Shown here: positions 32,007 through 32,390 of the stretch, piece after piece
Numbering within the stretch: the first letter of the stretch is position 1
Layout: each line of letters begins with the position of its first letter
Origin: Escherichia coli
GTDB lineage: Bacteria > Pseudomonadota > Gammaproteobacteria > Enterobacterales > Enterobacteriaceae
Length of the DNA: 64,000 nucleotides
Direction: 5' to 3' (one strand)
Assembly (NCBI RefSeq): GCF_002854065.1
Contig: NZ_CP024147.1
Position numbers and translations under genes: made by a program
The notes under the pieces: generated by a model
Databases searched by the model: none
What the model saw: the letters and a program-made list of their open reading frames with translations, nothing else
Told to the model about the DNA's origin: nothing

Positions 32007-32390
32007 GGCCTGATAAGACGCGCGAGCGTCGCATCAGGCAGTCGGCACTGTTGCCGGATGCGGCGTAAACGCCTTATCCGGCCTACGGAGGGTGCGGGAA
32101 TTTGTAGGCCTGATAAGACGCGCAAGCGTCGCATCAGGCAGTCGGCATTGTTGCCGGATGCGGCGTAAACGCCTTATCCGGCCTACGGAGGGTGCGGGAA
32201 TTTGTAGGCCTGATAAGACGCGCAAGCGTCGCATCAGGCAGTCGGCACTGTTGCCGGATGCGGCGTAAACGCCTTATCCGGCCTACGGAGGGTGCGGGAA
32301 TTTGTAGGCCTGATAAGACGCGCAAGCGTCGCATCAGGCAGTCGGCACCGTTGCCGGATGCGGCGTAAACGCCTTATCCGGCTTACTGAT
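32007..32390. repeat. Tandem array of four ~100-bp BIME units (each with two REP palindromes)
   Basis: Unit ggcctgataagacgcg(c/a)gagcgtcgcatcaggcagtcggca(c/t)(t/c)gttgccggatgcggcgtaaacgccttatccggcctacggagggtgcgggaatttgta starts at 32007, 32107, 32207, 32307; copies differ by a few SNPs. Confidence 0.9.

Follow-up and report, generated by a model that had tools for sequence, protein, structure and literature searches.

REP hairpins of the classical malE-malF type are 3′ mRNA stabilizers and Rho-dependent attenuators. In BIME-2 elements, z2 and y REPs lie in inverse orientation to each other and are repeated in tandem (Ton-Hoang 2012, PMC3333891). The number of units differs among strains (Ton-Hoang 2012, PMC3333891; Chiapello 2005, citing Bachellier 1997), and such variation in BIME-2 length was already recognized in the 1990s. 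REP325 of K-12, one such array, has units described as Y-l-Z2, with a 13-nt linker "l" between Z2 and Y and a 17-nt inter-unit linker "U" (for unknown), and gives rise to six RNAs (naRNA1-6), one of which is naRNA4 (Qian 2015, PMC4550694). The RAYT gene yafM of E. coli has Y and Z2 units on its flanks, and K-12 REP325 has been predicted to consist of RAYT-associated REPINs (bioRxiv 10.1101/2024.07.17.603846).

The array described here lies between yjdN and yjdM in the window, by which we mean the whole 64-kb (64,000-nucleotide) stretch of E. coli DNA that was analyzed. The element is already known as REP325/naRNA4 and is among the most studied E. coli REP clusters, although the first-pass annotation of the window did not recognize it as such; published work already covers the locus and its architecture, the RNAs that it gives rise to, and two competing models of its function, and little here is new. 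The best explanation of the data, to which we assign a joint probability of roughly 0.85, is that the array is a four-module allele of REP325, a BIME-2 array in the 3′ UTR of yjdM, that it would act locally as a terminator plus stabilizer, a role extended by inference from the six-module K-12 allele to the four-module allele, and that its unit number would change by recombination.

Like the malE-malF-type elements, the array lies in a 3′ UTR between co-transcribed genes and lacks a U tract, and, in the K-12 data for REP325, expression is biased toward the upstream gene. However, elements of that type have one to three hairpins, whereas the window array has eight, with C-rich unstructured linkers every 100 nt. 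With REPINs it shares the basic module of two inverted REPs separated by a short spacer, but REPINs are dispersed and the REP325 doublet is amplified in tandem at one site. Within the BIME-2 family, we compared it with the mhpE-mhpT array, which we read in the spacer of strain 1919D3 (locus positions 1333-1810). Both are intergenic tandem arrays of alternating inverted Y and Z2 units with a polymorphic unit number, and the mhpE-mhpT joint, Y-GGATGGCGCGGGAATTT-GTAG-Z2, is nearly that of REP325, so paralogues of the "unknown" REP325 motif U exist at loci other than REP325. The mhpE-mhpT array differs in its Z2-Y linker (ATCTGCGCACGACT), in its period, and in its transcribed linker strand, which is G-rich there and C-rich in REP325. 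CRISPR arrays, too, are regularly spaced, partly palindromic intergenic repeats, but the likeness is superficial, and we rejected a CRISPR reading: the "spacers" are identical (the three U linkers) or near-identical (the l linkers), and the neighbors are yjdM and yjdN, not cas genes.

Layout, identity, and surroundings of the array

Tandem Repeats Finder (TRF) reported 32007-32386 as a single tandem array (period 100, 3.8 copies, 98% matches, 0% indels, score 732), the sole long-period array within the 64-kb window, and a repeat search placed copies in register at 32007, 32107, and 32207, spaced by exactly 100. The first-pass annotation had described four tandem units of about 100 bp; the exact period and the unit starts hold, but the fourth unit is truncated, stopping after its Y palindrome, which leaves four Z2-l-Y modules and three U linkers. 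Read along the plus strand, a unit comprises, in order, a G (the end of GTAG), Z2, the 13-nt linker l, Y, CTAC, the 17-nt linker U (GGAGGGTGCGGGAATTT), and GTA, and the 100 bp are made up of a 77-nt Z2-l-Y module and a 23-nt CTAC-U-GTA joint. Both of the REP palindromes ascribed to each unit could be located in the sequence: Z2 has 14-nt arms and a 4-nt loop (unit 1 arms, 32008-32021/32026-32039), and Y has arms of about 13-14 nt and a loop of up to 4 nt (unit 1 arms, 32053-32066/32069-32082). Both palindromes are imperfect, the 14-nt arms being 86% complementary. On the same strand, Z2 is preceded by GTAG in modules 2-4 and by GGCG in module 1, and Y is followed by CTAC in modules 1-3 and by TTAC in module 4. 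Z2 and Y are inverted relative to each other, and the units run head to tail; with its GTAG and CTAC ends and its tandem arrangement, the array conforms to the published definition of BIME-2 (PMC3333891), in agreement with its earlier description as a set of BIME units. REP core motifs gave 8 matches in the 64-kb window against 0.33 expected and 5 against 0.04 expected, and, within the array, there are four copies each of the Y core GCCGGATGCGGCG and the Z2 core GCCTGATGCGACGC.

The units can be told apart by a few substitutions, which sit where the first-pass annotation had put them. Unit 1 has the Z2 loop CGCGAGC, with G at 32024, and the other three units have CGCAAGC. In the l linker, units 1 and 3 share CACTG, T at 32148 makes it CATTG in unit 2, and C at 32349 makes it CACCG in unit 4. 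We note one additional substitution at the end of unit 4, TTAC versus CTAC (T at 32383).

Table 1. Features of the yjdN-yjdM region in the window (positions in the 64,000-nt stretch)
Feature	Position	Strand	Basis
Whole BIME-2 array, orthologue of K-12 REP325	32007..32386	-	TRF and unit-by-unit alignment with MG1655 REP325
Module 4, adjoins yjdM, transcribed first, linker CACCG	32307..32383	-	RF02564, 108.9 bits, model 1-77
Module 3, linker CACTG, Z2 loop CGCAAGC	32207..32283	-	RF02564, 108.9 bits
Module 2, linker CATTG	32107..32183	-	RF02564, 106.8 bits
Module 1, adjoins yjdN, Z2 loop CGCGAGC	32007..32083	-	RF02564, 106.7 bits
U linker 1 (GGAGGGTGCGGGAATTT on the plus strand, AAAUUCCCGCACCCUCC in the transcript), between CTAC and GTAG	32087..32103	-	Sequence
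U linker 2, same sequence as linker 1	32187..32203	-	Sequence
U linker 3, same sequence as linker 1	32287..32303	-	Sequence
yjdM (phnA), upstream gene; the array is its 3′ UTR	32401..32736	-	ORF and RefSeq annotation on identical sequence
yjdN (phnB), downstream gene	31500..31943	-	ORF and RefSeq annotation on identical sequence
yjdM stop (TGA, 32403-32401) to the GUAA before the first Y hairpin, 14 nt	32387..32400	-	Sequence
Unique 63-nt spacer, array to yjdN start codon	31944..32006	-	Sequence

As shown in Table 1, all four modules match the Rfam family naRNA4 (RF02564; gathering score, 59.5 bits) on the minus strand and over the full length of the model, 1-77; the plus-strand scores are 52-54 bits, below the gathering threshold. 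The placement of the array between yjdN and yjdM, as first proposed, agrees with the RefSeq annotation on identical sequence. The window and K-12 REP325 have in common the yjdM-yjdN site, the build of the 100-bp unit, the orientation relative to transcription, and an identical left flank. Unit 1 in full (100 nt, 32007-32106) has exactly the sequence of the first K-12 unit, at 7806 of the MG1655 locus; module 4 matches the naRNA4/naRNA2 sequence at 76 of 77 positions, and the window units are 97-100% identical to K-12 REP325 units. The two alleles differ in unit number, with six modules in a yjdN-yjdM gap of 657 bp in K-12 MG1655 versus four in a gap of 457 bp in the window, in the terminal Y loop (CGAG in K-12, TAAA in the window), and in the right flank (TTACCGATC in K-12, TTACTGATC in the window). 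Their linkers differ as well: one U linker of K-12 is GGATGG, whereas the three of the window are all GGAGGG; CATTG, which is also found in KK05-19 and GDSC2227PM, has no K-12 counterpart; and the K-12 variants CACCAT, AGTTGG, and ATCTGG are missing from the window.

A second REP pair, consisting of a Y unit and a Z2-like unit between GTAG and CTAC, lies in the phnD-phnE spacer (29451-29531, plus strand) and scores 69.1 bits on the naRNA4 model, with the matching strand antisense to phn transcription. Because this pair passes the threshold, RF02564 evidently recognizes Y/Z2 doublets generally, beyond REP325. A strain-specific insertion of the pair was considered and rejected, as K-12 has the same sequence and the annotated phnE1 overlaps it.

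Because both genes are on the minus strand, the array forms the 3′ UTR of yjdM and lies upstream of yjdN. The first Y stem begins 18 nt past the yjdM stop codon; K-12 REP325 is listed within a 15-nt limit of its upstream gene in a preprint (bioRxiv 10.1101/2024.07.17.603846). The spacer at the other end, 31944-32006, contains a GAGG Shine-Dalgarno-like motif 8 nt upstream of the yjdN ATG and is kept in all arrays compared. Each module is predicted to fold into two bulged hairpins, with symmetric internal bulges, at about -43 kcal/mol per 77 nt and a z score near -5.5 (module 4, -42.9 kcal/mol and z -5.4; module 3, -42.8 and -5.6; module 2, -42.3 and -6.0), and the predicted fold of the whole 460-nt transcript has a z score of -9.4. 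Downstream of each hairpin, the transcript continues with CUAC or linker sequence and never with a U run. No intrinsic terminator (T tract) was found on either strand between 31944 and 32400, on which ground we rejected an intrinsic-terminator reading, and no σ70-like promoter was found inside the same interval. Of the 17 nt in each U linker, 9 are C and 1 is G when read on the transcribed strand; the corresponding totals for the entire array are 150 C and 114 G. Judged by this composition, the C-rich, G-poor U linkers may bear on a Rho component of termination, which we regard as only a lead.

Several features outside the array were recorded. In the window phnE is apparently intact, and K-12 MG1655 annotates a pseudogene, phnE1 (positions 4444-5282 of the MG1655 locus); the coordinates recorded with the phnE/phnF observation are 28653-29495 and 27907-28641, both on the minus strand. 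Both phnF (a 244-aa ORF) and phnD (338 aa) are open in the window; in CUWW06, phnF is annotated with an internal stop and phnD as frameshifted. A 31-bp segment of phnD, at about 30320-30352 in the window, is missing from the otherwise near-identical CUWW06 (locus positions 19345-19346), which accounts for the "frameshifted" annotation in that genome and may reflect either a genuine deletion or a mistake in its assembly. On the plus strand, a 21/42-bp tandem repeat lies in a coding region at 20312-20397; the CUWW06 gene is yjdP, a "DDRRRQL repeat protein", and 21 bp correspond to one heptad. Further along the same strand, a match to the Rfam enterobacterial sRNA STnc630 (38053-38218, 181.8 bits) directly follows a Z2-like REP core (38021-38034, plus strand) and, by position in CUWW06, is downstream of proP and near pmrR. 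The Rfam selenocysteine insertion element SECIS_2 was matched at 2187-2241 on the minus strand (87.1 bits), presumably, from its map position, in fdhF.

Unit number and unit haplotypes in E. coli and related genera

Since a megablast with the whole array matched REPs throughout each genome, we queried with the unique flanks only (1 kb on each side) and took the array length from the span between them in each record. The flank query matched at a single place in 5,418 of 5,426 complete E. coli genomes. Sixty records were then taken at even steps down the ranking, as a sample and not a census, and 58 of them were readable. A single module was present in 37 of the 58 genomes; two modules were found in 2 (O157:H7), three in 1, four in 3, five in 9, six in 5, and seven in 1. 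The first-pass annotation had raised the copy number across E. coli as a check on the array, and this check reveals a real polymorphism of 1 to 7 modules in 58 genomes; REP325 is a length polymorphism across E. coli. One further sampled record has an IS1 beside yjdM. In 22AR0434, an IS1A lies between yjdM and crfC, crfC is truncated, and a six-module array adjoins.

A 52-nt probe for the Y-U-Z2 junction matched at 99% or more in 2,159 records, which suggests that about 40% of the 5,426 genomes have at least two modules; the other ~60% lack any inter-unit junction. There were up to 13 probe matches in one genome. K-12 has seven such places against five expected from REP325, the extra two being the mhpE-mhpT BIME-2 junction at 96% identity, and a weaker related junction lies near fghA-yaiL. 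We thus rejected the junction as a unique REP325 marker, since related junctions occur at other loci, and, because the extra junctions of K-12 lie elsewhere, took only the ≥99% class as a proxy for multi-unit REP325.

We compared unit haplotypes in 17 arrays comprising 68 modules. The 54 stem-arm positions of the four arms are invariant throughout, and all variation is found in the Z2 loop, the l linker (eight variants), the Y loop (TAAA/CGAG), the U linker (GGAGGG/GGATGG), and the end tetranucleotides. Because the stems are invariant in all 68 modules, covariation is uninformative either way for the hairpins, and the invariance could reflect homogenization by gene conversion or recognition by TnpA-REP instead of selection on RNA function. 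When the K-12 array is written as A-B-C-D-E-F, PEC408 (three modules) reads A-B-F, EC0026B (four) A-B-D-F, and ECCWS199 (four) A-D-E-F; MRSN346355 (five) ends in an E/F chimera, and ET450 (seven) has a duplicated D unit. Among the K-12 derivatives, W3110-P (four modules) reads A-B-(C/E)-F and MC1061 (two modules) reads (A/E)-F. The window string is A, CATTG, CACTG, and a CACCG-terminal unit, which, among the arrays compared, only CUWW06 shares; its nearest relative is the four-module array of GDSC2227PM, which differs in its third and fourth units.

Unit haplotypes are common to different strains, and the strings are what unequal exchange or slippage between units would produce, although collapsed assemblies would look alike. 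The proposal that the copy-specific substitutions could trace the history of the array is borne out by W3110-P, MC1061, MRSN346355, and ET450, in which chimeric units mark crossovers. With four modules in W3110-P and two in MC1061 versus six in MG1655, either REP325 loses units within laboratory time scales or both assemblies have been collapsed. In the mechanism we favor, the unit number would change by recombination between the near-identical 100-bp units, with RecA-type unequal exchange, replication slippage, and the REP-associated transposase TnpA-REP as candidate routes.

Loci outside E. coli were retrieved from species-representative genomes with a degenerate pattern for the YjdM C terminus, which gave at least 120 loci; the loci listed included no E. 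albertii, E. fergusonii, E. marmotae, or Shigella. In at least about 45 of them, from Citrobacter, Salmonella arizonae, Enterobacter, Klebsiella, Kosakonia, and other Enterobacteriaceae, yjdN follows yjdM. Among the matches listed, the yjdM-yjdN spacers of these other genera are 80-170 nt long and have one or two local REP-type hairpins directly 3′ of the yjdM stop, and none contains a unit of the E. coli type. Citrobacter, Enterobacter, Leclercia, and Salmonella arizonae have REP-type hairpins of their own, e.g. GCCCGGTAAGCGAAGCGCCACCGGGC, right after the yjdM stop. As read from these spacers, the site downstream of yjdM has carried REPs recurrently or persistently across the Enterobacteriaceae. 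Z2-l-Y modules occur, among the matches listed, only in Escherichia whittamii and a divergent "E. coli" representative, each with two partly degenerate modules and a U-like linker between them. The outgroup spacers therefore indicate that the hairpin after yjdM is old and that the tandem BIME-2 array is an Escherichia feature.

For the number of units ancestral to Escherichia, the reading comes from two loci (L040 and L088). The single-module E. coli alleles have no U linker and cannot yield a two-module product by simple slippage, which, taken with these two outgroup loci, suggests that many of them are collapsed arrays.

Functional readings of the array

In the local 3′-UTR model, the hairpin array would protect yjdM mRNA from decay, as experiments on the six-module K-12 allele indicate, and would stop most transcription before yjdN by termination that is partly Rho-dependent. 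By analogy, the four-module allele would act likewise, with a strength between those of the one- and six-module alleles. The functional basis is one preprint on the six-module MG1655 allele (Harris 2026, 10.64898/2026.03.23.713779), in which deletion of K-12 REP325 lowered yjdM RNA, raised yjdN ~10-fold, and changed the yjdM/yjdN ratio from 35 to 1. The same study detected a Northern ladder of hairpin-sized RNAs from the K-12 array and found that read-through, 23% without bicyclomycin, reached 39% with it, an increase confined to the full 12-hairpin array. Fragments of 2-4 hairpins displayed no Rho dependence, and the behavior of eight hairpins is therefore an interpolation. REP325 is absent from an in vitro Rho-binding-site screen.

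The published competitor of this local role is a nucleoid-organizing locus, in which the modules would encode naRNAs that work with HU in bridging the cruciform DNA of REP sites and in condensing the chromosome. Every module of the window is far above the Rfam naRNA4 threshold, and HU binding, decondensation upon REP325 deletion, and rescue by plasmid-borne naRNA4 have been reported (Qian 2015, PMC4550694), as has a Kd near 32 nM for HU and naRNA4 (Harris 2026). The nucleoid-condensation model is disputed, however: the Harris preprint, which has an author in common with the original nucleoid study, found that neither deletion nor overexpression altered the nucleoid area, detected no stable ternary complex, and saw no contacts between REPs by Hi-C. 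The unit numbers also speak against it, given the prevalence of one-module alleles in our sample, the ~60% of 5,426 genomes without an inter-unit junction, and the reduced arrays of W3110-P and MC1061. With a spread of 1 to 7 modules, a global architectural role would have to tolerate very large dosage differences, and we consider it improbable. We are similarly doubtful, reasoning by analogy with the BIME-2 class, that the array would serve DNA topology as a strong gyrase binding and cleavage site relieving supercoiling between transcription units; the class is enriched for in vivo cleavage, mainly at Y units and independently of transcription, but the arrays singled out were sucC-sucB and tldD-yhdP, not yjdM-yjdN (PMC6379681). 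A gyrase role and an RNA-level role could coexist. More credible, although still unlikely in our estimation, is that the array is a neutral or selfish repeat, a by-product of amplification by TnpA-REP (RAYT) and unequal recombination whose unit number drifts without being under selection. This would agree with the range of one to seven or more units without a favored multi-unit state, with the general, published length polymorphism of BIME-2 elements, with the same linker type at the mhpE-mhpT array, and with the in vitro cleavage and recombination of BIMEs by TnpA-REP at CT dinucleotides in inverted REPs and linkers (PMC3333891). It fits less well with the altered yjdM and yjdN RNA levels and growth upon deletion of the K-12 array, with the stability of REP325 on plasmids (both Harris 2026), and with the REP-type hairpins of genus-specific sequence that stand right after the yjdM stop in many genera. 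For the extra units, neutral or selfish amplification is conceivable, and such a reading of the array is compatible with a function for one hairpin.

Two further alternatives concern the sequence itself. Misassembly is a known hazard of tandem 100-bp repeats, collapse could in principle also account for the chimeric arrays of W3110-P and MC1061, and the true array in the window might then have another unit number, the four-unit form having arisen by collapse or expansion. This is very improbable for the window: a 1,001-bp stretch with all unit-specific substitutions is identical in the complete genome NZ_CP182139.1, which differs from the window by 9 mismatches and a 31-bp indel over 42 kb, so two distinct assemblies share the same array. 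Moreover, three of the four units have a marker combination of their own, and four-unit arrays of other haplotypes are present in many independent assemblies. We give almost no credence to the idea that the ORFs of 56-87 aa that are open on both strands of the array encode small proteins, even though one RefSeq record carries a partial one as a pseudogene (ET450, locus positions 1283-1594; PGAP "hypothetical protein, frameshifted, incomplete"), a repeat-derived spurious ORF call in a seven-module array. The array ORFs have no NCBIfam match, translate one 100-nt unit in different frames, and cannot exist in the single-unit genomes (~60%), and 16 of the 17 RefSeq records whose annotation was read have no CDS in the array. 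As 100 is not a multiple of 3, the ORFs read one unit in two frames. The two 66-aa ORFs noted in the first-pass annotation do look like artifacts of the repeat, given their two frames and the lack of an NCBIfam match, but they are 65/66 identical and not, as claimed there, identical; the one difference, V versus M, is due to the CACTG/CATTG substitution.

We therefore retain the local terminator-plus-stabilizer model as a reading of the array at the strength given above, for the four-module allele by analogy with K-12. A tentative reading, on which we would not lean, takes the unit number as an evolvable rheostat with a threshold. Single-module alleles would then only stabilize yjdM mRNA, and Rho-dependent silencing of yjdN would be added above some unit number, with the U linkers (AAAUUCCCGCACCCUCC), one per added unit, as putative Rho-loading patches. 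A single module, which lacks a U linker as well as any second homologous unit, would therefore not re-expand by recombination and would be an absorbing state. If true, such a state would explain why a single module is the commonest allele despite the two modules in divergent Escherichia lineages.

Significance for REP325 biology

REP325 is a variable-number tandem repeat (VNTR) whose unit haplotypes record recombination events, and its natural alleles are a ready allelic series for relating hairpin number to termination and mRNA stability. Annotation pipelines occasionally place spurious ORFs in it. The copy-number picture, in which most genomes have one module and K-12 derivatives apparently have two or four, provides modest context for the dispute over REP325 function and favors a local, tunable 3′-UTR role over an indispensable, genome-wide architectural one.
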